Shown: piece after piece, positions 9,942 to 63,519 of the stretch
Numbering within the stretch: the stretch's first letter is position 1
Layout of the letters: each line of letters begins with the position of its first letter
NCBI GenBank assembly: GCA_001938485.1
Contig: MQRK01183776.1
Coordinates: 13,592 to 77,591 of the forward strand
Origin: Girardia tigrina
Taxonomy: Eukaryota
Direction of reading: 5' to 3'
Length of the DNA: 64,000 bases
The notes under the pieces: generated by a model
What the model was told of the DNA's origin: nothing
Database searches by the model: none
What the model saw: only the letters and a program-made list of their open reading frames with translations
Position numbers and translations under genes: made by a program

Positions 9942-11119
9942 GTTCCTCAATGAAAACATTTATTCAAGTTTACAACATTATTGTACAAATACTCGGTAAG
10001 TAATTATCATTGTCTTAATTGTGTCGATTATTAATATCGATTTATTTTTAGTTTAAAAAAAAATATTATTATTGTATTAATAATTTTACCAACAAACACG
10101 CAGCATCAGCGTTGGTTTGCCACAGGAGAAATGATAAAAGTCGGCAGTCATAATCAGTCGAGGTTATAGTCATGCTAATGTGACACAATAAAACCATAAG
10201 AACATCTAGTCATTTACGTTAAATTTTTACATCAGTAATTAGCGTTTATCTTGAGATAATTTGAAGAAATTCGATTTAAGATTCCTGTAAATTTTTCTCT
10301 TTGTGTTCTTCTAGAGTTTCTTTTGAATCAGAAGTGATAGATTGTTCAGAGATTTCTTCTGAAGGAACAATAAAATTCATGTCAGGATATTCAACTGGAG
10401 TTCTTGGTGTCGTCTTGATCGGTTGACTTGCATTTGCACCCAGGTTACTCTCTAAAGGCACGTCATCGACTTCATTTACTGGCGTTTCTTCAGCTTCATC
10501 ATTATTCGCTTTTTTGGGTTATTTTCTTTACTTCATTTATCAACACTGCCAATTCGGATCGTGTAGTTTTAAAGGTTTCATTGAGTTCTTCATTTAACAC
10601 TTGTTGTCCATGCCCAAAATTTAATGACTTAATATAGGAATGTTCTTTATTATTTTGATACATGATTTCAGACATTTCTTGCTCTTTGGGTTCTTGAACA
10701 AAAAGTAGATGATCTTCATTTGATAGCATTCCTTTTCCGTTTGCTCCTTTATTTTGCGTCATAAATAATAGTTTAGCTAACCAATTATTTATCAGTTTTT
10801 TAATTATAAGATGAATCAGTTTAGAAAAATCATACCAAAAAAGAATCACAACATAAATCCATCATGCATCACATTCATCTCATGCAAGAAAATTTATGTA
10901 CAAAAAATAAAAAACAGCTAATGAAACCAAGACTTTGTACAAGAACACAAGCAAAACCACGTCCAAATCAAAGATAATTCAGAGAGAAGACTGGTGAGAG
11001 AAGTACCCACTACAGGGATTATTCAAATTGGTTTGTGTTTCTTTTCTTATGATGAACGTTTTGTAAAAATTTTAGTTTGAAATTAATTGTTTAATGGGTT
11101 TTTTAAAATAAGATTAATG

Positions 11120-11769
11120 CGCAAACATGTACCTTTTCTTTTTAATGATGAATGGTACATTCAGGAAGACGGTGTCGCAATGGGTTCCCCATTAGCACCA
11201 ACTTTGGCATCAATATTTATGAAGTCGCTTGAGGATAAAATGAATGNATACCCTGGTGAAAAACCTGTGTTGTACAAGAGATATGTGGATGATGTCTTTT
11301 TGATTTTCAGAAATCAATCCCTCATAGAACCATTCCTAACATTCATGAATGGTCTTCATCCGAATATTAAATTTACTACAGAATTGGAAGTAGATAATAA
11401 ACTTCTCTTTCTGGACATTCTTGTCACTAGGATGAATGGAGGCTATAAAACTGAATTATTCAGAAAGGCAACAGATAAAGGTCTTTACACAACACCACAG
11501 AGTTTTTGTGAGGAAAAATACAGAGAGGGTATGATCAAAGGGCTTGTTCATAGAGTTTGGAGTTTGTCGTCCAGTTTTGAAATTGCAAAGCAGGGTTTAA
11601 ATATTCATAGAAGGCGCTTAAAGGACAATATGTATACAAACAAGCAAATGGAACACAACATTAAGGTAACATTAGACAAATTATGTACAGATGCACGAGT
11701 TAAAAAACAATTAAAACAAGAAAATACTGAAGAATACAAACAAATCATTAAAATTCCATATTCTGAAGG
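11120..11769 (+). mobile_element. Penelope-like reverse transcriptase, open frame up to the assembly gap
   Basis: [20 protein letters not shown]...LYKRYVDDVF...HPNIKFTTE...FLDI...FRKAT. Confidence 0.92.
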
Positions 11770-14689
11770 NNNNNNNNNNNNNNNNNNNNNNNNNNNNNNN
11801 NNNNNNNNNNNNNNNNNNNNNNNNNNNNNNNNNNNNNNNNNNNNNNNNNNNNNNNNNNNNNNNNNNNNNNNNNNNNNNNNNNNNNNNNNNNNNNNNNNNN
11901 NNNNNNNNNNNNNNNNNNNNNNNNNNNNNNNNNNNNNNNNNNNNNNNNNNNNNNNNNNNNNNNNNNNNNNNNNNNNNNNNNNNNNNNNNNNNNNNNNNNN
12001 NNNNNNNNNNNNNNNNNNNNNNNNNNNNNNNNNNNNNNNNNNNNNNNNNNNNNNNNNNNNNNNNNNNNNNNNNNNNNNNNNNNNNNNNNNNNNNNNNNNN
12101 NNNNNNNNNNNNNNNNNNNNNNNNNNNNNNNNNNNNNNNNNNNNNNNNNNNNNNNNNNNNNNNNNNNNNNNNNNNNNNNNNNNNNNNNNNNNNNNNNNNN
12201 NNNNNNNNNNNNNNNNNNNNNNNNNNNNNNNNNNNNNNNNNNNNNNNNNNNNNNNNNNNNNNNNNNNNNNNNNNNNNNNNNNNNNNNNNNNNNNNNNNNN
12301 NNNNNNNNNNNNNNNNNNNNNNNNNNNNNNNNNNNNNNNNNNNNNNNNNNNNNNNNNNNNNNNNNNNNNNNNNNNNNNNNNNNNNNNNNNNNNNNNNNNN
12401 NNNNNNNNNNNNNNNNNNNNNNNNNNNNNNNNNNNNNNNNNNNNNNNNNNNNNNNNNNNNNNNNNNNNNNNNNNNNNTATATATATATATATATGTTAAT
12501 ATATGTAAAGTTTAATATATGCGTAATCTTAAGATATATAATTTAATATAAGCGACAGCCGATCTCCAGCGCCAAAACACGGCTTACTTCCCAGACCACG
12601 ACCAACGAAAAAACAATTCGCCAGACCTCCCGCATAGCCGCCGAACGAGGAATCGATCGGAGATACTCTCGGTCGATCATCCGAAAGCAATTGCTGACGA
12701 TTCACATTTAAGTCAAAACACTATCTGCTACTAAAATTTGTAGATAAAAATTATGCATCTCCATTATGGATCTTCCTTATGGACATCAAGATTTTGTGGC
12801 TTCATAGGAACCTGCAAAACCTCATTTTTTTGACCGCTGTACCATCACCCTCATCGAATTTTTATTCAACATTTTCACTTGACAAACGTTTGTTGAAAAT
12901 ATCTTAGGGCTGAGTAAATTTTTCTTGTACAACCCTCAAAACAATATTCACCAAAACATTTTATTTATATCATCTATATGATTTTAAATAAAATCCTTAA
13001 TCTATCTTTAATTCAAATCAAAAGACAAAGTTTATTTTAGAAAGATAATATTTTATATCGATTTACAACAAGTAAAATTTTTACAAATTGATTAGAAAAT
13101 ATATATGTATCCCCTTACTTATGCCCAGTTACGTTAAAGGTCTGGTTCTCATCCAGAGCCTTTAGTATTTTAGGTACGGTTTTATCCCAATTATAAATAA
13201 ATATAGAAATAAAATTAATTACGAATAACGTTTGAAATTATCAATATAAATAAAGATTAACAATTTTAAACGTTTATAAATTATAGTAACCTCAATACTG
13301 TTATGTCACTCGAAACAATTCATTCTTCTTCACCAATAGATAAAAATTCTCTTCAACTAATAATTATCCTATCCCTTCGATAAATCAAATAATAATAAAT
13401 AATCTCTCCTTCCTCAGCCTTGACGAATTGAATCAATAATTAATGACATCTTCGTACAAAAACTTCTTTAGGTTAATTAGACAATAAGTAACGTTGCCTA
13501 CGTGTAAAATTTCTCTTCATCCTTCGGTTAATTTGAGCAATAATAATTTTCGTCTGGCAAAAATCTCGACCATCTAAATGATTTTAAAATTTTCTCCAAT
13601 TTCTATTTTACTTACCTAATGATTTTAAATTTTTCTCACTAATACTATATTAGTGTTTTCTTTTATACTTTATTGATTTCTTGTAGGCTGTACCTACGTT
13701 TTCTATTTTTTTGCTCGATTTGCATTTTTCTTGTTGGTCTAGATTTGGCCTTTGAATTTAAAATTTAAATTATTTCTTGTCTTTTTTTCTTTTTTTTTCT
13801 TGTCTTTTCCTTCTTATTTTTTAAATAATAATATTACCTTTTTAATGTAAATAATAATATTATATTAATAATTATCACGCACTAAAGTAAATAATAATCC
13901 ATATTATTTACTAAAAATAAAAAATAAACTTATTTTCACAAAATATATTAAAATAAACAAAAAATTAAAACAAATATTTACATATTCAATAACATATCCA
14001 AACACTTTGATTTACGAATGAAATTTACTAATGACATTTCAGCAGTTTCCTTTTCTCTAAACCTCATTTATATTTTTATTCTTTAATATTGTTTAAAAAT
14101 TTATTAAATTTATAAAAGATTCCATACAATTAAAAAAATATTTAAGATTTCATATTACAACCATGAACAAGTTTGAATAAAGTAAAATTTCAATAAAGTG
14201 ATAGAATATGATGATTAAAATTAGGATAAAATTTAGGATAATAATTTAAACGAAATCAATTAAGGAGTTGGAAAAATAAAAATGTATTTAATGAAAATTT
14301 GTTTGAAAATGTATATTTGTTTTATTAATACATTTTTGTGTTAAATATGAATGTGAGGAATAATTTGGAATGTTGTAAGTTTGTTGTTTGTATGCTGTTT
14401 AGATTTGTGACTCTCCTACTCAGATGGGATTGATATGTTTATTGATTGATTATTTGAATCTAATGAAATTAATTTAATGACATTAATTTTAAGTACTAAT
14501 TAATTGAAGTTTTATAATTGTGAATTTTAATAATGTTTTTAGTAAACGATTTTAACTTATTAAATTTAATATATTTTAAAAATTAATGTTTATTTAAAAA
14601 AATACACAATGCCTTTTTATCCAATAATATTAAAATTATAAGAAATTAAAAGTAAATATTAAAAAATTTCCCATTCATTGTTTTTTTAG

Positions 14690-20436: not shown

Positions 20437-21889
20437 NNNNNNNNNNNNNNNNNNNNNNNNNNNNNNNNNNNNNNNNNNNNNNNNNNNNNNNNNNNNNNNN
20501 NNNNNNNNNNNNNNNNNNNNNNNNNNNNNNNNNNNNNNNNNNNNNNNNNNNNNNNNNNNNNNNNNNNNNNNNNNNNNNNNNNNNNNNNNNNNNNNNNNNN
20601 NNNNNNNNNNNNNNNNNNNNNNNNNNNNNNNNNNNNNNNNNNNNNNNNNNNNNNNNNNNNNNNNNNNNNNNNNNNNNNNNNNNNNNNNNNNNNNNNNNNN
20701 NNNNNNNNNNNNNNNNNNNNNNNNNNNNNNNNNNNNNNNNNNNNNNNNNNNNNNNNNNNNNNNNNNNNNNNNNNNNNNNNNNNNNNNNNNNNNNNNNNNN
20801 NNNNNNNNNNNNNNNNNNNNNNNNNNNNNNNNNNNNNNNNNNNNNNNNNNNNNNNNNNNNNNNNNNNNNNNNNNNNNNNNNNNNNNNNNNNNNNNNNNNN
20901 NNNNNNNNNNNNNNNNNNNNNNNNNNNNNNNNNNNNNNNNNNNNNNNNNNNNNNNNNNNNNNNNNNNNNNNNNNNNNNNNNNNNNNNNNNNNNNNNNNNN
21001 NNNNNNNNNNNNNNNNNNNNNNNNNNNNNNNNNNNNNNNNNNNNNNNNNNNNNNNNNNNNNNNNNNNNNNNNNNNNNNNNNNNNNNNNNNNNNNNNNNNN
21101 NNNNNNNNNNNNNNNNNNNNNNNNNNNNNNNNNNNNNNNNNNNNNNNNNNNNNNNNNNNNNNNNNNNNNNNNNNNNNNNNNNNNNNNNNNNNNNNNNNNN
21201 NNNNNNNNNNNNNNNNNNNNNNNNNNNNNNNNNNNNNNNNNNNNNNNNNNNNNNNNNNNNNNNNNNNNNNNNNNNNNNNNNNNNNNNNNNNNNNNNNNNN
21301 NNNNNNNNNNNNNNNNNNNNNNNNNNNNNNNNNNNNNNNNNNNNNNNNNNNNNNNNNNNNNNNNNNNNATATATATATATATATATATATATAACCGTTG
21401 GGATAGACTTTCAAAGATTTGCTCCGATTTTATATTACGAATATCCAACTATTTGTAAATCTGTGAGTATTTGTTGTACGAATTGAAAAGTTAATTGTTT
21501 AACGAGATTTGTATTTGTATTATTTGTTGATCTTATATTTTTCGAGATCATTCTAAACAGGTTCCTCAAACAATATTTAGTTTGGTAAACCTGTTTAGTT
21601 CTATCTTTTTCTATAGTAAAAAATAACTGATTCATTTCCTTAGAGACTGAGGGACGAATCCTTTATTTTTTTCATCTATCATTATTCTTTTTCCAAATAC
21701 TTCGATTCTTTAAGACATGATCGGCGATGTTCGAGCAACAGATCTCCCGCGAGTCGTCCGCTCTCTTATAATCGCGATTGACGTAAATTACGTCTTCATT
21801 TATTATTATGGCATTTTTTAAAGCAGCGGATTTTTCATTTTGATTTCATTGAATAGAGGAAAATTATTTCTGTTGTAATCACTTTTTCG

Positions 21890-22005
21890 TAGGGATGTGC
21901 CGGGATCCGGTTCAAATCCGGCCGGAGCCGGTTTTCGGCCTTTTTACCAAATCCGGCTCCGACTCCGGCCATAATTTGGCCGGTTTTGTACCGGATTTTG
22001 TAAGG
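21890..22005. mobile_element. hAT-like terminus with CCGG-rich subterminal repeats
   Basis: TAGGGATGTGCC followed by many (A/T)CCGG motifs; no partner TIR found. Confidence 0.5.
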
Positions 22006-22049
22006 GTATACAGATGTACAAATTTTAGAAGGAATGAAGTCAAATTTAG

Positions 22050-23940
22050 ATATTTTTCGGGTTTTTTCCTAAAATTTACATCATCTAGATACCATACAAT
22101 GCCTTCACAGTGTCTGAGGATGTTCGTCATTACCCTCATGAATGCTACTGGGGCATTTGCTAGACCGAATGGAAGTCGCTTGTATCTGAATTAGCCCAAG
22201 TGCGTAATGAAAGCTGTTAAATCTCTCTTCTTTTCTGATGGGTAGTTGATGGTATGCTGAAGTTAGATCCACTTTGAGAATATCTGAGCTCCGTACAGCT
22301 TGTTATGAATCTCTTCCTGAGTGGGTATTGGAAACTGATCGATTTTGATGTGTTGGTTAATCTTCCTGTAATCGACACACAGTCTAATCCCGTTCTTCTT
22401 GTTCGCTATCACTATTGGTGATACAAATGCGGATTATTCGATTGACTCGATGACATCTTGTGCAATCAGTTTCCTAATCTCTTCAGTGACAGGTAACTCC
22501 AAGTTAAAAGGAAGTCTTCTGACTTTTTGCATGATGGAATCGGGTGCACCTTCTTTCAGTTGTTTTGATACTTCTTGGTTCGACATCGATATTAGTTTAT
22601 CTGTCATGAAATCCTTCTCCGTTGCATCGTTATTAATAGCTGCTATTTCTGGGGTAATAGCTATTCGTATTGTTATTATTGCGTCCCTTCCTAAAATTAC
22701 ATTATTTGCCTCGTATATTAAAAAATCAATTTTTTCTGTTCTTCCCTTGTATGTTATCACTAGGTTCTGTAGCCATCCTTTTATTGGAATTGGTGATGAA
22801 TCGAAATTCGAGCATCTGATGTTAGAGACCTTTTTATTTCGTCACAGAAATATCTTTTTTAAATCCTGGGGAAGAATTCAAATTTCGGAGCTTGTATTAA
22901 TGAGTATCTTCATTGTGGTCGTTTATCCTGACTCTCTTTGAATCACAAAATCCACCATTGGTCTCTCAATTCTCCGTAGTATGCTGCGTGGCATATGATT
23001 AATGTTGGCAATAACAACCGCCGCCAATTGTTGATGTTTCGCTTCTTTTTCAGACCGTTGCAAAGTGTCCCTTTTCGGAGAAGTTTGGGAAATCTACTTT
23101 GCGTTTCTTTGATCCGCATCGGTAGCATTCCATGTTCTGTCTCTCCGGTCCTCTGTATTCCGGCCATTTTTTTCCAAATGTCGCCGAACATGATAACAGT
23201 TTATCTAGTGATATAGTGCACTCAGAAATATATTTCGGTCGTCGCATTCCTCTCTGGTGCTGTGCTGATGAACTTTGCAACAAGTAATTCGTACTTTTTT
23301 TCAACATATTGGAAGTTATCCAGCAGTTTCTGGAGAATAGTTGCATACTCATCGGTTGATCCTGTATATTTTGTATTGAAGAACTCGATCCTATCCAAAT
23401 TTCATTTTTTTTGAATATCTGTTTGTAAGAAAGTTAACTATTTTTGAAAAATCTTTGAGGTCTACTCTGGCCACTCCTGAAATTGTGACTTCGTAAACCG
23501 GAAGATCCAAATTTGTCAGCAAATCATCGGCCATTCTCTCTTCCCAGAGTCCAGCTAGGCTGCAGACTAGCTCGAACTGTCCAAGCCGAACTTGAAAATC
23601 GACTTGGTTGTGAAATTTTTCAGGCATTGATATGGAAATTGATCCTGATTCTGGAAGTAACGTCGGCTTTCTCTTCATCCTCGTCGCAAATTGTAAAATC
23701 GTATCAAGAAACTAAAATCAAAATGCAAACACCATTAATTAAACATTTAATTTTAAGTGACAATTTAATTAGTAAAACAAATATATTTTCTTAGGATTAA
23801 TTTAATCTCTGAATACTCATTAATTAAATCATTTCTCGATACTACAAATAGATAAATATTAAATAATAATAACAAATAATAACCGGAAGATAAAATATAA
23901 TCAAAACTAATTAAGTATGTAATACGTGATAATATAGCAC
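22050..23940 (-). mobile_element. Degraded Gypsy LTR retrotransposon (LTR end, PBS, gag, RT)
   Basis: LTR end ..TTACA at 23692; decayed tRNA-Ser-type PBS tGCGACGAGGAT; RT motifs RLCVDYRKIN, VRRLPF, WYLDDV. Outer LTR boundary uncertain. Confidence 0.85.
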
Positions 23941-24228
23941 ACAGGCACAATCTCAAGGGTTTCAAAAAATATGAATTGACGAATTTCACAAAAAATGAAC
24001 AAAAACAACTGATTGTGAAATTTTATCTGGCTCAACCATTCAGAGCGAATCATTTCATTCATTTGCTCACAAACTCGGCAACTGAACAACAATCGGCAAA
24101 AATGAATTAACAACACTGACTCGATAAGTCATCGTTAATTAATCCATTGTTCTTTAAATGAACAAAGATCGAAATTAATTTTTTAAATTTTCTTTACCAA
24201 TTTAATTTTAGATTTTCATTTATACATC

Positions 24229-25716
24229 TGTAGCAACAACACAATGAACAGCGCGCAAGTTATATTTGAAATTAAAATCCGAATCGGCAAACAACCGATT
24301 TAAACAAATACATCACACGCCCCCCTGCCTTCAAGGCATATTCACTGCATCAGCAAGGAGGCAAGCCAACTTAATTTGCGGTCCTTAGACCGCACCCCGA
24401 GTCCCCGAGTTCGGTCTGTTCCCGAATTTCAACTCGGCTCCCGCGGTAGCCAAAAAATTGTATAGTGACAGCCTCGTGACCTCCGGCATTGCAGTCTCAC
24501 TCGCAGCTGTTTCTTCGCTCGCTTCAGCAGTGCGCTCCCCTGCACCACAACCAGATTGGTTGCCTCGCCTGGCTCCTGCTGCTCGTCTGCCAGTACCATC
24601 AGTTACATTGCAGGGTGTTCCCCGTCGCACAGCACGGTCGTTGTGTCCAACATGATGACCGACTTGCCGATATGATTAACTAGGTTCTTCTTCATCACGT
24701 GCAGCTCGAATCGCGCAGCTCCTCCTAGGTCATCCCTTGTCTCCTTGATCGTCCGGTTGAGCTTGTCCCTCAGCTGCCGCAATTAGCTCATCAGAAGACA
24801 GCCTCTAATGTTGCCGCCAGCCGGTTCTGCCCGAGCATTTCTTGTCAAATTCTCTCGTCCACTCAGTTTTCAACATCTTCCTGCCCGCGTATTCAACTAA
24901 TAGGCTTGAATATGAGTCCGTAAATGATCGTCAGTTCTCGATGCCGTCTCAAATCCCCTCGATCGCCCGCGCGTCCCGCAATCAGCTTTTCAATCGCCCG
25001 CGCCTCTCTTGATCTGCTTCTCGATCACCCGCCTTCTTTTGATCTGCTTCTCGATCGCCCGCACCTCTCACGATCCGCTTCTCGATTGCCTCGCCGTTTT
25101 TTCCTAACGACGACTTGATGCACACGACCCAATCGTGCAGCTGCGCATTTTCGATTTTATCCGTGTCCGCCTCGTCCACGAACACGAGCCTCCGGTCACT
25201 ATCTACTATCCCGAGCGCTTTCACTGCGCACAACAGCTGCCCAAATCCCAGCCGGCCGAGAATTCTGCTATCGAACTCCATCTTCTCGACCACCTCGAGC
25301 CTCATGCGGAGTGTTCAATTGTCCCCGACCCGAAATCGTGATGTCCCTCTGATCCATATTTGACGAAATTGTCGATATCGTCGCGATCTGTATTGGGTGC
25401 CACCACCGGTCTTGACATCGGCCACCAGACTTCCAACCGCTATGATCACTTCCCGCCGGAAAGCAATCGGATTGGTGAATCTGCCGATCTTGTAGAATTT
25501 TCGTCTTTCGACAGCACATCAATCGGTCCCTGAAAGCTGAAATTGCCGCCCCTCCGCATCGTCATTGGCTTTGATATCACTTTCTTGGCGCTGCTCACTG
25601 TCAACATTGGTTGTTGCCGCGATAGCTTGTAGCAACAACACAATGAACAGCGCGCAAGTTATATTTGAAATTAAAATCCAAATCGGCAAACAACCGATTT
25701 AAACAAATACATCACA
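24229..25716 (-). mobile_element. Small non-autonomous LTR element (TRIM-like), 1488 bp, 89-bp LTRs
   Basis: LTRs 24229-24317 and 25628-25716 (TG..CA, one mismatch); 5-bp TSD ACATC; PPT GGCAGGGGGGCG next to the 3' LTR; GC-rich interior without RT. Confidence 0.93.
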
Positions 25717-28700
25717 ACATCTTTATATAAATATTTCAGTGATTGTCATTCGACAAAATATAACAGGAAAAAATGCCCATTTGAATCGTCTTTGGGCAAG
25801 AAGAGAGGAGAATTTATAAATAAATATAACAATAAATAATTTATAATTTCAATTTCGAAACAATTATTATTAAAGTGTCTCAAATGTATCTATTTTGTTC
25901 ATTGGTGTAAATGTACATTTTTATTTTTTTATGTATGTGTTATTAATTTCTTTGTGTAACATTTCTCTGTCACCAGTGACAATCACCATAACAACCAAAA
26001 AATGCGAATCTGATACATCACTCGAAAAAAGTATAAAGTCGAATGATGTAGATCGAAGTAAACAAAAATTTTAAGTAAGCTGGAGCTAAAAACGAACATC
26101 TAGCATCTGCTATTCCAAATAATATTGGAGATGAATCTGTTCGCACACTTCATGATTACGTCAATGGTAATAGCTCCAAAGATTGTAGTAAGACTGTGAA
26201 GCCAGAAAGAAAAACGAAAGCCTTTAATGGAAGCAAGAAATAAGATTTATAAATATTACAACATGGATTTAAAAAAAATCGATAAATCAGAATTAATATA
26301 AATTTCGCGATTAGTTATCGCTAACAAAATCTGGTCAAGCGTAAACAAAAAAAACAACAATCCTCCCAACGACAATCGGTGCATCAACCTTGACAACCTC
26401 AGATAATCAACCGATCAATTCAATGTATATCTTCGTTTTGGACAATACTCCCCATCATCCCTAGTTTGGTGAATAATTATATTGTTTACGAAATCGTAAT
26501 AATCATTACGACTTACATTTTTTTAACAATATAGTTATTTTGTACGTTGGTTTGTTTTTTTTGGTATTTTTAGATTGCTAAGCTCATTTAACTTACTTGT
26601 TAGATTAGCTTAGTAATTCTTCCCTGTATAGATTGATTCATAGTCACTATCGTTCATCTGATAGGTGAGTCATTCTATAATTGGTATTAAATCATAAACA
26701 TTGTAAGACAATGTTGAGTTGGGGCATTGTACCGTTGCTGCCAACTGTTCTGGACGTCGATCCCTGCATCGAGGCAGGAGAAAACTTGGTTGTTATTATA
26801 CTCATATTTAAGAAAAACAATGTAAAAACTCGAATATCCGTTTTATTTCGGTTGTCAACCATTTATCTTTACAGCACATTTAAATTTTTTTGAGTAGATT
26901 TTTTGTGTTAATTAGTTCACTTAAACAATTTTCTTTATTTTGACATTAAACTTTTTGCTTGTTCATTGTTTTCGGTTCACTTTTCTTTTTTCTTATACTT
27001 TCATTTTTTTTAATTAACAACAAGGTTTCATTGGTAATGAAAATTATTATTTATTAATTTAGAAATTTGCAAAAGTGAAAAAAATATATTAATATCAAAA
27101 TTTGTTAATTTTGGTTTTACTTTTGTGAATTAATTTTTTTGAGAAATATTTAACAAGTTCATTATGTGCTATTCGGTGGTCACTACATACAAGAACTAAG
27201 ATTGTTTTTGCAAAAAGTGAAAGCCATCTGCTTCTACACATTTCTCTTTCCGTTAAGACAGCTGTTTAATTTCATCAAAATACCAATCATAGGATCTACA
27301 GTCCAACAATTGATGAAACCATATCTTGAAATATTTCTGTACTTTAAAAAATCTTGCAGAAAAAGTGGCCTTCAGTCTAAATGGATAGTGATCTGAACAT
27401 GATAGGTTTTGGTTAGTAGAAATATAATCGCTCGTGTAATTAAAATTATTATATATTCCGAATATTCATCGTATCCCATAAAAAGTATACAACAAGACAT
27501 TTTTACGAATCATATAGATTTATAAATGTTAGAAATCTATAGAAAATTCTGGGTTAAACATGTATTAAAATTTATTTTTTATATAAAAAAAATTTAATCA
27601 TTTTATTAGAGTTTGTCATTATGAGTAATAATTTTTAATATGTAATTACCATCCTCCACAATATCAAGGACCGGTCACTTAATAATCTAGATATTGAAGG
27701 GGCTTCCTTACACTTATTGCTCATTTCGTGGAATTGGCTTCTATCTCATGAGCTGATATCATCCCTTTCAGAATTTCTGTCTGCAATGCAATCATTGGAA
27801 TCTATTTATAATCGTTTTTGATTGTTGGATCACTCAAAGGCTGGATAATATCTCTTTCATATTTATTTATATAATGAGTTTTTTATACTCATATCAACAT
27901 TTATATTTACCAAATTTATATTTACATGTACTCATGTTTATATTAAATGTGGACCAGTCCAAGCTGAAAGATCATACTCATGAACATATTAAATGTAAAT
28001 ATATTATACAAATCGTATATTAAATAAAAATGTATTATATATTTTATATAAATCATATATTAAATGAAAATTTAAAAATTTTATAATAATGATGAAATAA
28101 GTAATCGCGTAGCGATCAAATTAATATTTGAATTACAATTAAAAATAAAAATAAAAACTAATATTAACGAGATTCCGATCTGCAATAATTATTATCGTTC
28201 CACATAGAAATAATTACCAAAACAAAATATTCACACAAGATTATTTATCATCAACATTTCCAAGGACTACTATTTATCCAATAACGGAAAAAATAAGTTA
28301 ACCTAAGTTGTAATTATTATCAATTCAATGTAAAAACAGAAAGCACATGAATTAATTTTTTTATGAAGCTAATTAAAAGATCCAAATCACTCTCAAGAGT
28401 TTACTAGTTATCTTACAATCACGAAATCAAGTAATTCAAACTCTCATTCCTTTTCCTATGATTCAATATTTCGACTTTCTTTTTTTCTATCTGTTGTCTC
28501 GTTTAGAATAGTTTTAATAATAAACTTCATATTAGTTATATATTTTCTTATTTTTACAACATAAGTGAGTCTATTGAGTCAGTTACCGAATTCGTCGGCT
28601 CCTTTAATAAAATTGTCTTTTGACCATCATTTATCCATTAATTACTTATCCCATTAACTAAATAATTTGCTTATCCAATTATCCCTTCTCTAAACCATCA

Positions 28701-29440: not shown

Positions 29441-29746
29441 CTAGTATAGATTTCTGGCAATCACGTTTCTCATATTACTGTTTTCTTCGTGTTTTGGGTT
29501 GGAAACACCACCAGTGTTGTCACCACTTCCCCCTGGAAATTCCTTGAAAAGACTAGAATCATCATGGCCAACTCCATTTTTAGCATATACTGCATCATTG
29601 GCATTTTCTGGATCATTAAATTCAATAAACACAACTGGTGATTGCTTCCCATATTTTATATCGTAATCGAAAATTTTACCATATTTATAAATTAAATCAT
29701 AAAATTGTCGATTTCGAATATCCAGAGAAAATTTTCCATCGTTCAT
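29441..29746 (-). pseudogene. SRSF1/SRSF9-like (ASF/SF2) RRM1 decayed copy
   Basis: DIRNRQFYDLIYKYGKI..DIKYGKQSPVVFIEFNDPENANDAVYAKNG....LFKEFPGG aligns by eye with SRSF1 [38 protein letters not shown]...LRVEFPR; RNP motifs degraded. Confidence 0.75.
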
Positions 29747-30449
29747 TTTCCTCTAGCTTAAATCACCCGAATCAGACATGACAAGTTCAAAAGATAAATT
29801 CATTTTCAATAATAATTATTTTTCCGAAACCGAAAGTCAAATCAAAACAAGTCAATTTTCAATAATTTTTAATTTTTGTAAACCAAAGCCAATTTTCAAC
29901 ACTTCCACCAAATTTCGCAATTTTAAACAAACAACAAAACCAACCTTATTTTCAATTTCCTTTATCAAACAAATTTCATTATTGAAATTCACACAAATAA
30001 ATTTACAAATTGATGAGTTTTTTAAAATAAAATCACACATTTTACTAACTTCTCTTTTTTTCCATAAAAAGTTACACTCAAAACTAAATAAAATTCCAAA
30101 CACAAATATCAATTAAGATAAAATTTTCATAAATAACAGATGAAATAGCAAAGATCAAGATTTACAAATTATTATTGATATACTTGAACGTTTTTTAAGT
30201 CTGGGTTGACTTCAATACCCAAGCTCCCCAGGGGCCGAAAGCCCCCTACTAAACTCGTCAAAACACAAGTTCAGAACCTTATTGCTGATCTAGGCAACAT
30301 CGTTAAAATAAATCCCGTCGCTATAGAGTTGATACCACAGTTGATAATATTACTTGATGATATGTCACTGATGGGTCTTGGAAGATCTTATTAAATTAAT
30401 TAAAAAATTTATTAACTTGATCCAACTTAACTGAGCTAATCTCATATTT

Positions 30450-36314: not shown

Positions 36315-36885
36315 ACAATATGACTTGGGATTTCGCCGCCTCCGTTGCGATATGGTGGCTGTATCCTCCTGGAGCTCTGCTAAAAAGGCCTTTTTAATAA
36401 AAAAATATTGGGGGGCTTCTCCCTGGCATATAAAAGTCGTGAGCTTCCAAAGTACCGCGACGAATTCGTCGATTGACTCGCCTTGCTAAAGGTTTCGATT
36501 CCGGCACTCCTCAGAGCCGGCTCTTGGATCCGGTTCGAAAGTGACCGATAGTGCCACTTTAATTGATTCATAATCTTCTTGGTCTTTTGTCGAACGCGTG
36601 GCCCTCCACCAGCCGCGGGATCACTCCTGATTTATCGACTCCACAGACGGATATCGATGCCTTAAATTTCCTTACCAACGTGCTGAAATTTTCGGATCCA
36701 TCAAAAATGCGAACCGCGTCCGTGAATTTTATCCTGTTCATGCTGCGATAGCTTGTTATTTTAGAAAATCTCATAAAATGATAACTTAGGAACTAACACG
36801 CAATTTATTTATTTAAATTTAACTCAATATCGGGAAACAACCAATTTAAACAAACGAATTAATATTAGACAAATAATTAATTACA
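36315..36885 (-). mobile_element. LTR retrotransposon 5' fragment (LTR, atypical PBS, gag start)
   Basis: LTR end ..TAACA at 36754, then AGCTATCGCAGC and ATG (MNRIKFTDAVRIFDGSENF..). The LTR shares ATCGG-AAACAACC-ATTTAAACAAA with the 89-bp LTR. Confidence 0.7.
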
Positions 36886-50324: not shown

Positions 50325-53099
50325 GTAAGAATATACTTATGATGTTTAAATATTTGTTGCATTTCTATTTTTATTCATGTTTTACAAAACGTTGTATTAA
50401 TACAACCATTTTACATATATTTCCTTGGAAATTCTTTAAAATAAATGATTGATTTCCCATAATGAAGAAATGTATGTCTAAAAAAGTCATTTTAAGTGCA
50501 AAACTTTGTATCACGAGTCTTTCTGGACTTGAAAGAATTAAAATGATTCTAAATTTAACATTGTAAAGGAATGTTGTGCCTTATAAGAAGTGATCCTGCC
50601 ATAGAATACATCCGTGGTTCTCAATCTTTATGAAATTGGGGAGTACTAAACTTTAAAATTTATTCCTACGGAACACTTACAATAACACATTACCTTTAAA
50701 GCAGGGGTGGCAAACCTTTTCGGATTCTAGAAAGCAATAAAAACTAGAGTATTGCTCAGAAAAATAACACCTCTTCAAAATATTTTCTTTTATAAAAGAA
50801 TAAAGTACCAGATGAACGTAAACAATTTTATTTACAAATAATTCAAAATTGCAATACTTAAAAATTTAATAAAAACATATTTTTGTTGGGTATTTGAATT
50901 AAAACTCGGTTTTATCTTTGTTTATATTAAATTTCTAATCTGACTCCAAAACGACTAAAAGGTTTCTTCCAACAATAATATATGAAGAATGAACACATCA
51001 TTTTAATACACTTTATTTGCAAATGACAACTTGAGCACAAAATTAAATCGAAACTATAACAATAAATCAATATTTTGAAGCACACTCAACCAGCACAAAC
51101 CAATATCAATTTAGAACGAGCAATATCTGAAATTTATGATTAAATTTTTCTCCTTTACAGGATACTAAATTTGTTAAGTAAACAAAAATTAAATAAAGAA
51201 AGATTACCGTAAATCATAATCAAGTTTAAAGATTTAATGAGATCCGTAAGTATAATTTTGTCCGTAATTTTTGTTGTGAATATGACTGAAATAATTATTG
51301 TTTATATACTAGTTTTTAAATAACCTTGAAAATTAGTTTGCTAAAATAATTCTAAAAATATTTACAAATATTCTACAAATTTTATCAAAATAACAATTAT
51401 GATAAACAAATTATTAATTTTAACCAGAGAATTATTTTTAATTTTTCTATTAGATTTTAAAATTTTAATTTATATTTTTCTGAACCCCAACATTATGTTA
51501 TAATTTATATATATAATAATAAATTTTTTTGTTGGGAGCGTTGTTGAGTTCATAAAATTTTTGAATTTACAATCTTATCAAATTAATAATTAAACAATTA
51601 CATTCCGTAAAATATTGTTATAGATATGTTAAAATAAGATTTTCAGAAATTTAATGTAAAAATTAATTTATGTAAGAAATAAAATAAATTTTACGGTAGG
51701 TTTATTAAAAGATTTATACAAAGATTTATTACAAAGTAAATAAGTTAATTACAATTTTAATAAAAATATTTAATTGCAATAAAATCAAACGTAATATAAA
51801 ATTTAATATTTTATTTGCGAAAAGAAAGTAAACTAAACTATTTTTTGTAACTTTATTTACACGATTAAATCGAAGTAAATAAAAAATGTTATTATAATTT
51901 TCTTTTGGAAATTTTTTTTGGAATCAAAATATAATTGTTAAACAATTAAATCGACTTAAATGAAAATGCGATTTTAATTTTATTTTGGAAAACGTAATTA
52001 TTAATGGAAATATAATTTTATTTTTTATATAAAAAAAGGTAATTTAAAAGTTGTTAAATTAAACGAAATTGCGATTTTAAATTCTATTTTCAAAACATTA
52101 TTTTACTAAATCGGAAAGTAATTTTTAAAACTATTATGAAAGCGAAATGAAAAATGCTATTGTATACAATTAGGAAATTTAATTGAGAAGCAGGTAAATT
52201 TAAAGGTACAATAAAATTGAAATTTAATATAAGACGCAACAAAATCTTTGTGACAAAATTTTAATTCACTTTATAATTTTTTTATTAAAAAAAAGTACAG
52301 GATTTTAATTCGTAAAAAATACAATAACCATATTTATATTTATATCAATTCTTATTTATAATGGTTTGTGTAAAAAGAAAGTGCAAAAGTTCCTCGGAAA
52401 TATTTGTTTAAAAAAACTCAAAATGTGGTAGAAAATAAAGTTTTGTGTTAATGTCAACGTCTTTTGATCAAGAACTCAAGACATATTTTATAATTTAAAT
52501 GAAGTAAATGGTGACTAGAATATTTTGTATGGTTAACTGTACCACTCGGTGTAGTATATTACAAATTACATCATTGACATTTGCTGATTACATTTCCATT
52601 ATTTTACATTGTACTGATTTTCCTTTTGCGACAATTTTTAATTCTGTATTTCATTTTATTTGTGGAACGCTTGATGTATCTTCGCGGAACACCAGTATTC
52701 CGCGGAGCACGGTTTTCAAATCACGGGAATACAATGTGATTGTTTTTACAAGGGGCAAAACTAAAAAAAAATGTTTTTGGAAAGCGTCTAAAACAGTGAT
52801 TCTCCACGTGGGCGATATCGCCTCCAGGGGACGTTTTCTATTTTCCATGGGGTGCTGTGAGGGCCAGGGGCGTTATTGGGAAGAAAAGTTCCGAATTATT
52901 GACCAATAATTTATTTCCTATATCATATGATGTGGATCAGTCAGACGAGTAACTTAAAAATATCTTCTGTAATACATAAAAGTCAAAATTTGGTTTTACC
53001 ATCTGTTGGTGTGAGAGCGGTCGCGGGGTCCATGGGTTGAGTAATCGGTGTTTCCGAGACAAGGGGGACGGAAAAACCAATCTTACTGCATTCGCCTGC

Positions 53100-53400
53100 C
53101 GATCATCAATCTCGTCTCCGTGGAAGAATGGTTTGCGGGTGATCATCTCAGTAAATCTATACGCCATATTCCACACATCTACTGCCCAAGAGTATCGCTC
53201 TGACCCTATTAAGATCTCGGGTGTCCGATACCACAATGTAAAGAGCCTTCATCGGTACACCAAAGGTCTTAGCGAGTCCATAGTCTGAAAATTACATAAT
53301 CGTGCTAGTTGAATTGAGGAACAGATTTTGTGATTTAAGATCTCTGTAACCCGGCGTAAGTGACAAAACAATAGTCCCTGTAAAATTTGTTAATCAAAGT
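53100..53400 (-). pseudogene. CDK1/CDK2-like pseudogene, subdomains VI-X
   Basis: QILQGLLFCHLRRV / [27 protein letters not shown] / [23 protein letters not shown]...[11 protein letters not shown], with frameshifts. Confidence 0.88.
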
Positions 53401-53650
53401 GTAGTGACCACAATTTATTACATATCCATCGTAAAATTTTTCCTACACTAATAAAATTTTATCGTTGATTAAATTTATAAATAAAACTAAAACTAAAATC
53501 AAAATTATCAAATTTCAAATTTAATTAATTTTATCAATTGTAATTTTTTTAATTACCACTAATAAGTAAAATTTTATCGGTGTTAAAATTTATAAAAAAT
53601 CAAAACCTGGTAACTAAATAAAAAAAATAAAGTTAATGAAAATATCATTT

Positions 53651-53701
53651 AAAAATATATTTTAAGATAATATATTTCGACGGTTTAACCGTCATCATCA
53701 G
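53651..53701 (-). ncRNA. Minimal hammerhead ribozyme in the inverted Penelope repeat
   Basis: Minus strand reads CTGATGA-T-GACGG-TTAAA-CCGTC-GAAA-TATATT..AATATA-TT. Confidence 0.75.
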
Positions 53702-55567
53702 ATCACTGATTATGTTCTTTATTATTACTTTTATATAAGAAATGAATGATTATGTAATCACTTACGTAAGTCTAATCAAAAACTCTTAAGAAATTAGTTG
53801 AGAGTGCTGTTTGAACATTGATTTTTGGATCACATGATCTTATGAATAATGCTTCACATGACTCTCTCTCCCAATAATTTTTAAAATGCTTGCACAAAAT
53901 TTTAAAATCATTTATGTTCACATTACATTTACACGTTTTTTTATGCTCAGCAATATTACTCTTTCCCCTATTTGATGGATGGACAATTTACGAAGACATT
54001 TTACGATGGACATTACAAAGGATATTTTTGACTGACTTCATGTGTCTGGTTCTCAACCAGTAAAATTATACGGCCTTCCTAAAATACATAAAGATGGAGT
54101 TCCAATGCGACCGGTTCTATCTATGATCCGTACGTCTCAGTACAATATTGCTAAATATCTAGATACGAAGATAAAGTCTTTCATTCCTAATGATTTTATT
54201 TGTAAGGACAGTTTTGAGTTTGTGAATTCCAGTGCTTATTTTGAAATACGAACTGAAAATGATTTTATGGTTTCCTTTGATGTATCGAGTCTATTTACTA
54301 ATGTTCCGTTACAGGAAACCATCGAATTATGATGTGAACTTTGGTGTAAGAATAATCTGGACAATTCTGATTTAGATGAAGTTGCTTTTCGAAAACTCTT
54401 AACATTTGCTACTTCAAATGTCCATTTTCTATTTAATGGTGAATGGTATAAACAAATAGATGGGGTTGCAATGGGTTCACCATTGGCTCCAACGTTAGCC
54501 TCTATATTTCTTTCTTCCATTGAAGAAAAAATAGAATTGTTTTTGGGGAAAAAGCCACTACTTTATAAGAGATATGTGGATGATATCTTTCTAGTCTTTG
54601 AATCTCGAGAACATGTGTTTCCTTTTCTAGATGACATGAATTCGATTCATCCAAATATAATCTTTACAGTAGAACAGGAAATAAATGGAAAATTACCATT
54701 CCTTGATTTGTTAATTGAAAGGAAAAATGATCATTATGAAACTGAAATATATCGAAAGAAAACTGATATTGGTTTTTACACCTCCATAAACAGTTTTTGT
54801 GAGTTTAAATATAAAAGGAATATGATCAAAGGTTTGTTATACCACTCTTAGTCTCTTTCTTCTACGTTTTCAAAATCTATTAAAAGTATTGATACATTGA
54901 GCAAGTTATTGAATAATAGCGGTTACTCTAAGTCCATCTTAGACAGACTCATTCGTGAGACTGTAGATAAAATAATCGAAAAAGAAAAATCAAAAATGAA
55001 CAAATTAATAGTTTAAACATTGAAAACTGCTTTACACCTGGGTATACTCTAAGTTTACCTTACTCCGAGGGTTTTAAACATCTCAAGAATTCGATCTTGA
55101 AATCAACAAATAACATTTTAAATTTAAAAATTATTTTTCAATCATTTAAAGTTGAGAATATGTTTTGCAATAAATCACATACTCCTTTGCGATTGTATTC
55201 GGACATTGTTTATCAATACACATGTTATGGGTGCAATGCCACATACATCGGAGAGACTGCCCGTCATCTCTTCAAACGAGTCCAAGAACACAGTCAAAAA
55301 GGAGGAAAGAGTAATATTGCTGAGCATAAAAAAACGTGTAAATGTAATGTGAACATAAATGATTTTAAAATTTTGTGCAAGCATTTTAAAAAGTATTGGG
55401 AGAGAGTGTCATGTGAAGCATTGTTCATAAGATCATGTGATCTAAAAATCAATGTTCAAACAGCACTCTCAACTAATTTCTTAAGAGTTTTTGATTAGAC
55501 TTACGTAAGTGATTACATAATCATTCATTTCTTATATAAAAGCAATAAAAAGAACATAATCAGTGAT

Positions 55568-55616
55568 CTGATGATGACGGTTAAACTGTCGAAATATATT
55601 ATCCTAAAATATATTT
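55568..55616 (+). ncRNA. Minimal hammerhead ribozyme at the Penelope 3' end
   Basis: CTGATGA-T-GACGG/CTGTC-GAAA-TATATT/AATATA-TT. Confidence 0.75.
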
Positions 55617-56099
55617 TTTAAAGGCGTTTATTTCTTTATAATAAAAAATTGCTATCTTTTTTCAAGTTTATTAATGAAAATATGTTGTTTAAATATGTAT
55701 GATTTAAAATAAAATTTTCTTATCGGCTTGAAAACGTGATATTTTCCCTGCCTTTTTTTTATCGATTATTCTTTGCGGTAAATTCTATAATCGTATAGAA
55801 ACCGTAAAAAAAGATAAGAAAAAATTCAACTGACGGCGAAACACCTGGGGGACGATTGGCAACGAAAATCGCTCGTAAATTCCCCCCATCGCCCGATGGC
55901 GTCAAAACGCCGAATCGACGTCGTTCTGAAACTCTATGGCAAGATGGCGACCCCCATAGCATCCCAATGCCATCCGACACCGGTAATTTATCGTTATTGT
56001 CGAACCGTTTCTCCGGAGTCAAATTCAAGGGTCACTGGTTGGTGATTGGACCCGTTGAGTTCCCATCGAGACGGCGCAATGTCCCCTTTACACAAAAAA

Positions 56100-60181: not shown

Positions 60182-61395
60182 TTGGGTTGGCCTAAAAATC
60201 ATTGCGTTTTTAAGTACGTCCTAATAAACAGCTTGACAATATAAAACTATGTGATAAAATTTAAATTCAATTATATATTCTAAAACCTCAATTTTCAGAC
60301 TATGTTTATACAAAATATTAATTGCTTTTGTTTTAATTGATTACTTTACCGTCAATTCGAAATGGAAAATCAAAATGAGCATATTCGTCATGTTTTGTTG
60401 CATTATTTTCGCAAAGGGAAAACCGCTGTGCAAGCTCATAAGAAGATATGTTTTGTATNNNNNNNNNNNNNNNNNNNNNNNNNNNNNNNNNNNNNNNNNN
60501 NNNNNNNNNNNNNNNNNNNNNNNNNNNNNNNNNNNNNNNNNNNNNNNNNNNNNNNNNNNNNNNNNNNNNNNNNNNNNNNNNNNNNNNNNNNNNNNNNNNN
60601 NNNNNNNNNNNNNNNNNNNNNNNNNNNNNNNNNNNNNNNNNNNNNNNNNNNNNNNNNNNNNNNNNNNNNNNNNNNNNNNNNNNNNNNNNNNGGTTACCAC
60701 ATGAACTGAAAGAAATTCATTTGGTGAAACGTATAGACATTTACGATTCCCTTTTGAAGCGAGAACAAAGTGATCCATTTTTGAAGCGCTTGATTACGGG
60801 TGACGAAAAAATGATTGTTTACACCAATGTGAAACGCCGACGATCATGGTCAAAACGTGGTGAGCCTGTCAAAACGACCCCAAAAAGCAGAAATTCACCA
60901 AAAGAAGGTTATGCTTTCCGTCTGGTGGGAATTTAAAGGAATTGTGTTTTTTGAACTCCTTCCGAGGAATGAAACCATCAATTCAGACAGATATTGTGAT
61001 CAGCTGGAGAAATCGGCTCATTCAATTCAACAGGAACGTCCTGAATTGATAAATCGAAAAGGAGTTGTAATTCAGCGTGTAATTCAGGTTTTGCCGCACC
61101 CACCGTATTCTCCAGACTTGGTCCCATCGGATTTTCACCTATTTAGATCACTGCAGAATTCCTTAAACAGAAAAACATTCGCCAGTGATGATGACATCAA
61201 ATCGTTCTTAGACGGCTTTTTTGCTGACAAGGGCAAAGGTTTTTATGAATCAGGAATAATGAAGCGACCGGAAAGGTGGAAGAAAGTGATTGAAAATAAT
61301 GGACAGTATACCGTGTAAAATTATTTGTGCATCCATGTCATTTTTTGATAATAAATATTTTAGTAAAAAACGCAATGACTTTTTGGCCAACCCAA
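60182..61395 (+). mobile_element. mariner element, defective
   Basis: TIRs TTGGGTTGGCC.AAAA.TCATTGCGTTTTT with TA TSDs; LITGDEK, KKVMLSVWW, HPPYSPDLVPSDFHLF. Frameshift, and the HDNA (second Asp) segment is deleted. Confidence 0.95.
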
Positions 61396-61859
61396 TACAC
61401 TACTCTACATATCAGAAATCACTGAGCAGAGATATGTGTTTTCTGAGTCCGTTTTTGGCGCCGATTACGAAAATGAGATCCAAATTGTCTCACCAGATCT
61501 AATTTTTTAGATATGCGTATAGGCATTAATTTCGAAATTATCGAAAATTTCATTGAGTAAAGTCTGTCGCTCAAAACAGTTAAGATCATCAGGAGTCTTA
61601 GTAAAGTTAAGATATGAGGGGAGCGGACTGGAGTGCAACCTGGAGTATGTGTTGGAGGATGATGAGATTATTCAGCCTCCCCAAAGTGAATGTTTGTGTT
61701 TAACATGCGTAAAATTGACCTAATAATGAATCAACACAGTTTGTCATATGATGTTACATGGATGGAGTCGCACACACCTTCACTTTCTGCAGTGTAAGCT
61801 GTAGTAGTCTTACTATATGTAAAAATAACAAATTTGTTTCTCAATTCACTAGGGCCCAA

Positions 61860-62130
61860 ATCTGTTATTTTTACTATTATAAAATAACCAAGTTTAAATA
61901 AGAAGTTTATTTATACCGGTTGCATAAAATTCTGGCTTTCTGAAGGCGATGAAATCGTTGAAGGCAGTTTTAGCATACCTTTGATTTTTGAAGTATTTCA
62001 CCAGGAAGAAAATGTCAAAATGTTTGAAAAAGTGATAATCAGTAGGCGAGAGGTAAGCTGAGTATGGTGGATTACTCAAAGTTTCGTAACCAAGTTTGTT
62101 CAACAGTCGCATTGTCAGACGTGGCAACGG
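61860..62130 (-). mobile_element. mariner 3' fragment
   Basis: LNKLGYETLSNPPYSAYLSPTDYHFFKHFD...PEFYATGINKL. Confidence 0.85.
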
Positions 62131-62176
62131 TAAACCCCCTGAAGGGAGGTGGGACAGAACTTTCATCTTTCCCCTA

Positions 62177-62368
62177 TTAATTGGAGATTCCGAATTCTAA
62201 TTTCATTTTTTTTAATGCAAATCTGAAACAATTATCTTTTACATCCCGTTCAGAGGACGCTTACCTGAGATGGATTAGACTTTCAAATAGACATCTAAAT
62301 GCGCAAGCATACCTTGTAAAAACATATTTTCCTAAATACAAAATGGTCTTCATAATAGCTTCCAAAAT
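62177..62368 (-). CDS. Putative last two exons (62368-62265, 62222-62177) of a convergent gene
   Basis: Acceptor ttttctag; ILEAIMKTILYLGKYVFTRYACAFRCLFESLIHLR; 42-nt GTAAGC..TTTCAG intron; FALKKMKLEFGISN*. No homology recognised. Confidence 0.4.
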
Positions 62369-63342: not shown

Positions 63343-63519
63343 ATTATTTAATTCAATTAAATCTTATTTAATTTTTTATTTCTTTTTTATTTTAATTACT
63401 TATTTAATTATTTAATTTTATTTTTATTAGTTTAATTAATTTTTTTTATTTAAATTACAAATAAAAGGTTTAAGGCTATCGCAGCGCGACCACTATATAT
63501 AATTTATATGATCTGGTTC

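Follow-up and report, generated by a model that had tools for sequence, protein, structure and literature searches.

Three ways of priming reverse transcription in LTR retrotransposons are listed in the available sections of PMC6317226 and PMC10886601, namely, by a whole tRNA, by a half-tRNA (in Copia only), or by self-priming. The half-tRNA systems (Drosophila copia, yeast Ty5, Osser, Bryco, Bianca, and the fungal Helenus/Copia elements) resemble the locus described here in relying on a 3'-truncated tRNA, as we propose below, and in lacking a TGG; their tRNA is cut in the anticodon stem or loop (ca. 40 nt), and the primer-binding site (PBS) pairs with an internal stretch (PMC6317226 and PMC10886601, same sections). 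In Tf1/Tf2/Tj1 and sushi, too, the partner of a short PBS is the extreme 5' end of an RNA, and a cut makes the primer (PMC4600332, in excerpt). The elements from Girardia tigrina considered here carry, immediately after the 5' LTR, 12 bases that are the exact complement of nucleotides (nt) 1 to 12 of a host tRNA, and on this complementarity a 12-nt 5' tRNA fragment is the likely minus-strand primer, with a probability that we put at roughly 0.8.

Two LTR elements in a SelO intron

The window, i.e., the whole stretch of DNA that was analyzed, comprises 64,000 nt of contig MQRK01183776.1 (positions 13,592 to 77,591, forward strand). It contains a SelO gene (17063-59773, plus strand, with exons at ca. 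17063, 49661, and 59447), and the two LTR elements lie within a single intron of this gene, between exons. Their features, in window coordinates, are as follows.

24224..24228, plus strand: left TSD, ACATC, 5 bp
24229..24317, minus strand: 3' LTR, 89 bp, one difference from the 5' LTR
24318..24329, minus strand: G-rich PPT, GGCAGGGGGGCG, adjoining the 3' LTR and also present in family copies
24330..25615, minus strand: internal region of a non-autonomous family
25582..25657, minus strand: predicted U5-leader stem in which 9 of the 12 PBS bases are looped out, z -5.85, family-specific
25616..25627, minus strand: PBS AGCTATCGCGGC, complementary to nt 1 to 12 of tRNA-Phe(GAA) of the host, with no gap to the 5' LTR
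25628..25716, minus strand: 5' LTR, 89 bp, TG..CA
25717..25721, plus strand: right TSD, ACATC, 5 bp
36426..36741, minus strand: broken gag remnant of the same lineage in two frames, matching the lineage gag profile
36742..36753, minus strand: PBS AGCTATCGCAGC, differing from the Phe match at one base, in a second family, which codes for gag
36754..36885, minus strand: 5' LTR of the second element, with a putative far boundary

The element at 24229-25716, a non-autonomous LTR retrotransposon of 1.5 kb, has no detectable gag or pol; it has a pair of TG..CA LTRs (99% identity over 89 bp), a PBS, a PPT, a TSD, and dispersed copies. Its internal region (24330..25615) matched none of the gag, RT, or RH profiles of the lineage described below, and the two ORFs tested from the element had no match in Pfam. 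The first-pass annotation, made from the bare sequence, had placed a 12-mer directly after the 5' LTR, and reading the minus strand confirmed it: AGCTATCGCGGC runs from 25627 to 25616 with no spacer after the LTR end ..TACA. Within the 64-kb window the 12-mer has two exact matches, and five when up to two mismatches are allowed versus 1.05 expected; the remaining three of these were not found to be LTR junctions. The stretch GGCTATCGCAGC at 63474-63485, with one mismatch and no LTR end before it, is probably unrelated.

The window family has 63 genome matches in all. Among the best 25 of them, 19 loci have the 5' LTR, and the PBS was recognizable in all 19 (exact in 8, with one change in 6, with two in 3, and with more in 2), while a perfect 5-bp TSD flanks 9 of the 15 two-LTR copies, the window copy included. 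The U5-leader stem, which had been proposed to loop out most of the 12-mer, is real in the window element and even longer than claimed (z -5.85), but it is not lineage-wide. As a lineage feature the stem was rejected, with a mean z of 0.05 (n = 92) and values below -2 in only 3 of the 92.

The element at 36742 had been described as a diverged relative of the first. It does carry the site at the same position, with AGCTATCGCAGC read on the minus strand from 36753 to 36742 after the LTR end ..AACA, but it belongs to another, gag-coding family, and the gag ATG comes directly behind its PBS. The LTRs of the two elements are 82% alike over 56 nt, and no partner LTR of the second was found within the window. 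Its GCAGC form of the site had been read as the imprint of a second tRNA; most likely it is point decay instead. The same form appears in 11 of the first 100 Phe-type junction matches (see below) and in one copy of the window family.

Other mobile or copied sequences lie nearby. A remnant of a different, classical-looking gypsy with an RVT_1 match (21853-23711, minus strand) is found beside the first element. An RT fragment flanked by inverted repeats (255 and 73 nt) at 53648-55621, which we take to be Penelope-like, has a similar RT at 11087-11770. Single-exon RRM and protein-kinase fragments (29441-29752 and 52937-53248, both on the minus strand), antisense within SelO introns, are possibly processed copies, and Mariner-type transposase remnants occupy 60258-62196 (Transposase_1 match at 60833-61315).

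The site in the host genome and the tRNAs that it matches

A search of the AT-rich host genome (1.43 Gb) with ACA followed by the Phe-type 12-mer gave 910 matches, compared to none in the control. In all 30 matches sampled, an AT-rich stretch ending in ACA leads into the 12-mer, behind which the sequence diverges at once between families, often starting with a gag ATG. As this sample was chosen by motif, 40 further loci were chosen by the DUF7047 domain instead (top of the list). An LTR pair was present in 12 of these 40, and 11 of the 12 carried the site or a decayed form of it (8 to 12 of 12 bases), the twelfth having an interrupted LTR. A TGG at the PBS, the absence of which had been pointed out for the window elements, was found in none of these 12 own-genome loci. 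The motif scan was positive in 12 of the 40 lineage loci versus 0 of 20 classical-gypsy control loci, which had no LTR pair within 10 kb, their own PBS thus being unseen. One occurrence, AGCTATCCGGGC, lies inside the RT coding sequence of one family with no LTR context and was taken as coincidence.

A host tRNA that starts with the predicted 12-mer does exist. It is tRNA-Phe(GAA), seen as overlapping gene pieces. The complement of the PBS followed by CAG has four matches in the genome, which are 5' pieces of tRNA-Phe(GAA) genes, and the overlapping 3' pieces hold the GAA anticodon arm and the acceptor strand TCGCGGC, which pairs with GCCGCGA. Three pattern searches of the assembly and an Rfam scan of 63 candidates recovered no intact tRNA-Phe gene, only interrupted pieces. 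The tRNA-Phe flank together with nt 1 to 14 has a very high read depth in one of four sequencing runs and no spanning contig, and this depth suggests a collapsed multicopy gene; the tRNA-Phe sequence used here was assembled from the overlapping gene pieces and the read depth in one run. The pieces themselves (L001-L004, L055-L057, L193-L200, and L202-L207) are mostly interrupted genes with flanks in common, the interruptions falling around the D-arm and anticodon stem, and an RT-like frame is found at the end of L207, within the sequence that separates a 5' piece from a 3' piece. These interrupted genes look like targets of a tRNA-Phe-gene-targeting non-LTR retrotransposon.

The list of host tRNAs had led to a prediction of Lys and Ile sites before the genome was searched, and the Lys-TTT and Ile-AAT genes are intact in the assembly. 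With a pattern that covered Lys-TTT, elongator Met, and Thr, there were 2,273 genome matches (control, 7), and 94 of the first 100 were the exact complement of Lys-TTT nt 1 to 12. All 24 sampled Lys-type matches look like LTR-end/PBS junctions; 15 of them gave a match with the gag profile of the lineage and 2 with that for RT. A broader tRNA pattern showed no overall enrichment (522 matches versus 758 in the control), and the complement of Ile-AAT nt 1 to 12, with 12 occurrences among the first 100 of the 522, was the only 12-mer standing out; behind one Ile-AAT-type site (L348) there are lineage gag and RT profile matches. The tRNA for Tyr was outside all patterns used, and no match to a Met-type PBS family was obtained in the host genome.

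The first-pass proposal that the complement fits tRNA positions 1 to 12 therefore holds exactly for Phe, Lys-TTT, and Ile-AAT, three host tRNA 5' ends each matched at 12 of 12. None of the 28 distinct intact host tRNA sequences, an incomplete tRNA set, fully matches the Phe-type primer, and among them the best tRNA-internal or 3' match of the PBS away from position 1 was 8 of 12. With the exact matches all at nt 1 to 12, the site is not of the half-tRNA type, as had been argued, and no match to a tRNA 3' end rose above 8 of 12 within the same set. Conservation ends after 12 nt, also as claimed (1.8 to 2.0 bits at PBS position 12 and 0.4 to 0.5 at position 13), i.e., it stops opposite tRNA G1. 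In one subfamily, L261 keeps only 10 of 12 matches and L251 keeps 9 (the first 9 to 10 PBS bases, ..GCG followed by TG), which suggests that shorter pairing may suffice.

Pairing of the PBS with the element's own 5' end, as in Tf1, would be in keeping with a PBS length of 12, near the 11 of Tf1, and with the U5-leader stem of the window family. However, the PBS forms at best 5 to 8 of 12 pairs with the element's own LTR in 14 of 14 elements, the own-LTR duplex reaches -4 to -11 versus -19 to -23 kcal/mol, and the site stays fixed among families whose LTRs are unrelated. In the window LTR itself the complement is absent (best, 7 of 12 pairs), as had been noted, and Tf1-type self-priming is unsupported. 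A chance or coding-related motif would be the other way to do without a tRNA, and chance is excluded by the three exact tRNA matches. We assign next to no probability to either.

The lineage that carries the site

The PBS complementary to the tRNA front end marks one compact PR-RT-RH-IN lineage (DUF7047). Its elements are ca. 4 kb long, with TG..CA LTRs, mostly 5-bp TSDs, the order PR-RT-DUF7047-RH-IN, and a gag of the CCHC type (CX2CX4HX4C), the ATG of which is usually 0 to 26 nt behind the PBS. A pol alignment of 57 proteins led to 78 metagenome loci (from the best 80 of 155), and 49 of these protein-chosen loci contain the PBS motif, compared to 1 in antisense and 1.26 per shuffle; in four of them (L134, L137, L141, and L145) an LTR pair ends at the motif. 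Where a gag start and upstream sequence were available (53 loci), 51 carry such a 12-mer (42 at up to 150 nt, 4 at a greater upstream distance, 3 following a mutated LTR end, and 2 in the form CGCTACCGAGGC), while L138 has a partial site and L171 no recognizable one; the motif and gag profile behind these counts were drawn up after seeing the loci, and several contigs are near-duplicates. The site is, in short, conserved across the family, a condition on which the original proposal depended, in the window-family copies, the domain-chosen loci of the host genome, and the metagenome loci. In the leader between PBS and gag of L176 (1845-1945), a tRNA-like segment with a run of T behind it was seen, which ARAGORN did not call.

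Except in two CGCTA cases, the first five PBS bases are fixed in the metagenome loci, and those facing the tRNA acceptor strand vary with host-type changes. For 26 of the 49 variants the PBS corresponds to nt 1 to 12 of a verified tRNA (AGCTATTTCGGC in 12 loci, AGCTAGCCGGGC in 2, the host-type Phe site in 11, and Lys-TTT in 1), the other 23 being without a verified counterpart. In the excerpts at hand, AGCTATTTCGGC ends a Drosophila tRNA-Phe 5' probe (PMC7038984) and AGCTAGCCGGGC a human Lys-CUU probe (PMC8599901); the literature searched gave nothing useful on tRNAs matching the remaining 23. Since CGCTACCGAGGC fits the elongator-Met pattern GCCTCG-N-TAGCG, tRNA nt 12 appears to be paired. 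Of the primer length of ca. 10 to 12 nt first suggested, 12 is likelier than 10, with PBS base 1 changed from A to C, as an elongator-Met-type G12 requires, in two elements, on which this base-12 covariation is based. Named members of the lineage come from a bryozoan (Watersipora subatra), a crab (Petrolisthes cinctipes), and two cephalopods (Octopus sinensis and Argonauta hians), with more distant ones in a sponge, Sycon ciliatum (PBS positions unread), and no relatives were found in viral contigs.

The RT of the lineage falls on a long branch apart from the classical gypsies of the host (SH-aLRT 100) in a quick tree of 110 rows that has those gypsies alone as outgroup and no named reference sequences. 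Grouping the eight own-genome Phe-type elements as one clade was rejected (AU, P = 0.0003, on a quick tree of 42 rows chosen after the first tree), and therefore the site follows the host tRNA. Such host tracking may come from selection alone, because the PBS of Ty1 and Ty3 is inherited and not recopied from the primer (PMC7472051, in excerpt).

All 57 proteins compared have the same catalytic residues in RT and RNase H, the acidic ones of RNase H included, and the RT core is an ordinary YxDD. The latter bears on whether the intact tRNA could prime uncut through the 2'-OH at nt 12, with a branched RNA-DNA product like that of retrons. The same pairing would fit and a nuclease would be unneeded, but the ordinary RT core speaks against it, and to our knowledge no LTR element primes from a tRNA 2'-OH, so that we regard this route as highly improbable. 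Among 43 RNase H domains, Pfam found RVT_3 in 42, RNase_H in 38, and the gypsy RT_RNaseH (PF17917) in 2, and the gypsy-type domain (PF17917/PF17919) is rare in the lineage. The predicted RNase H model (pLDDT 90) was closest in a fold search to archaeal-type RNases HI (4e19, Z 17.1, rmsd 1.9, 124 aligned; 3aly, Z 15.1, rmsd 2.3, 123 aligned; 3u3g, Z 15.0, rmsd 2.3, 125 aligned), with which Foldseek agrees, a likeness of fold that is no demonstration of function; foamy virus (13.1), CaMV (12.4), and Ty3 (9.4, only 90 aligned) scored lower. A classical gypsy RNase H was seen elsewhere (G000:C249044:28300-28614) in an open frame of 4,142 aa, which points to a giant element.

There is a single RNase H in the lineage, with a Ser conserved three residues before the invariant Asn (read with no reference alignment), a position at which the aRNH (Tat-type) RNase H presumably has Arg. 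The integrase scored best against a betaretroviral integrase in the PDB. The thumb and RNase H motifs resemble, as we take it, those of BEL/Pao, and none of the 20 pol proteins had a match to a BEL-specific Pfam domain (e.g., PF05380). The elements may form a lineage of their own at the superfamily level.

A proposed primer and its place among known systems

The site is real and lineage-wide, and it very probably represents a new priming variant. As an inference from sequence, priming by a short 5' tRNA fragment, already suggested in the first-pass annotation, is supported. The element RNA would invade the 5' strand of the tRNA (acceptor strand plus U8-U12), a cut in the D-stem would separate nt 12 of the tRNA from nt 13, and RT would extend the new 3'-OH straight into the terminal ACA of the LTR; the window element would borrow the machinery of its autonomous relatives. 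Co-folding predicts invasion of the intact Lys tRNA by the PBS (-45.5 versus -38.5 kcal/mol, a gain of ca. 7), calculated on unmodified tRNA with tertiary structure ignored. The CAG at tRNA nt 13 to 15 cannot pair with the ACA of the LTR, and therefore a longer fragment could not prime as is.

Given priming by such a fragment, the lead for the cutter is the element's own RNase H, which would act in trans on the RNA duplex, a possibility to which we give about even odds. It is favored because of the analogy with Tf1, which primes in cis with its own 5' end and in the priming of which RNase H reportedly has a role (Levin, in 1996), and because double-stranded RNA is among the substrates of Sulfolobus-type RNase HI. 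The same 12-nt primer could also be made by a host nuclease, as an existing short 5' fragment or by RNase P-like hyperprocessing, and then be packaged; this is a sub-variant of fragment priming, not an alternative to it, and we consider it rather unlikely. A host-nuclease origin and packaging have been proposed for the copia half-tRNA. The primers seen have G1 and U8-A9-G10-C11-U12 in common, which a host enzyme could possibly read, and that a cut tRNA is able to prime is known from the half-tRNA systems (PMC6317226 and PMC10886601, available sections). However, the cut would have one and the same position in the Phe, Lys, and Ile tRNAs, precisely where the PBS duplex stops, which an enzyme that measures the duplex would explain simply, and no sites for the Ala, Cys, and Thr tRNAs, which have the same TAGCT, were found among the first 100 of the 522 broader-pattern matches.

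A different role for the same pairing would be to anchor an intact tRNA by its 5' strand, for packaging, dimerization, or translation control at the gag ATG, while its 3' end primes elsewhere, like the bipartite Ty3-type sites. The short distance from the site to the gag ATG (usually 0 to 26 nt) fits an anchor, as does the freeing of the tRNA 3' strand by invasion in co-folding. Yet there was no exact TGG-N-acceptor site in 95 junction regions (6 had a one-mismatch match, scattered), a site flush with the LTR end has a position defined by priming, and the site has been retained in the non-coding window family (recognizable in 19 of 19 copies with a 5' LTR, 8 of them exact), so that an anchor is very unlikely. 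Returning to the 12-nt fragment as primer, the fullest version, in which a pan-metazoan, unnamed lineage apart from classical Ty3/gypsy unzips the tRNA 5' strand and its own archaeal-type RNase H cuts after nt 12, giving a Tf1-like primer in trans and a fourth priming mode, is tentative, and we would rate it somewhat below an even chance.

The priming mode is probably undescribed so far. As the first-pass annotation had supposed, no description was found in the open literature searched, a scope that leaves subscription journals, Repbase Reports, and GyDB outside. The PBS strings turned up mainly in tRNA probes, no paper on DUF7047 was found, and the available parts of PMC4558846, PMC5006619, PMC8556966, PMC6238403, PMC4402516, PMC4408406, bioRxiv 2023.10.26.564294, and PMC12440569 contain nothing similar, nor did the motif match in the accessible supplements of PMC6238403 and PMC8556966. 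The site marks an abundant lineage, with >3,000 junction matches in the host genome alone, and PBS searches by tRNA 3' ends (e.g., bioRxiv 2023.10.26.564294, in excerpt) would score it as being without a PBS. One prediction is that the tRNA fragments that could feed these elements, or block them, are those from the 5' side and not those from the 3' side.

The lineage differs from half-tRNA systems in a PBS that pairs with nt 1 to 12, up to the mature 5' end, in a proposed cut within the D-stem, in matching the tRNAs for Phe, Lys, and Ile, and in arranging its domains as PR-RT-RH-IN and not, like Copia, with IN before RT. The difference from Tf1 and sushi is that the partner is a host tRNA in trans and not the own transcript, with no LTR complementarity, no chromodomain match, and no lineage-wide U5 stem. 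With Ty3/gypsy (Metaviridae) the elements have in common TG..CA LTRs, a PPT, a 5-bp TSD, a CCHC gag, and PR-RT-RH-IN, but they have no TGG or 3'-end match, their RNase H is rarely of the gypsy type, and their RT forms a long branch. Among tRNA-primed elements, those of the mdg3 type have a PBS for a tRNA-Leu lacking 5 nt. Troyka is likewise a metazoan LTR lineage with gypsy domain order apart from Metaviridae, but it has CG..CG ends, a 3-bp TSD, and CX2CX8-10HX4C (PMC12440569, in excerpt), whereas the lineage has TG..CA, 5 bp, and CX2CX4HX4C. The aRNH-bearing (Tat type) elements carry an extra archaeal-type RNase H beside the gypsy one (PMC4408406, in excerpt), while the lineage has one. A 12-nt 5' fragment would be a fourth LTR priming mode, bridging tRNA priming and the self-priming of Tf1, and if true, the origin of self-priming becomes testable.
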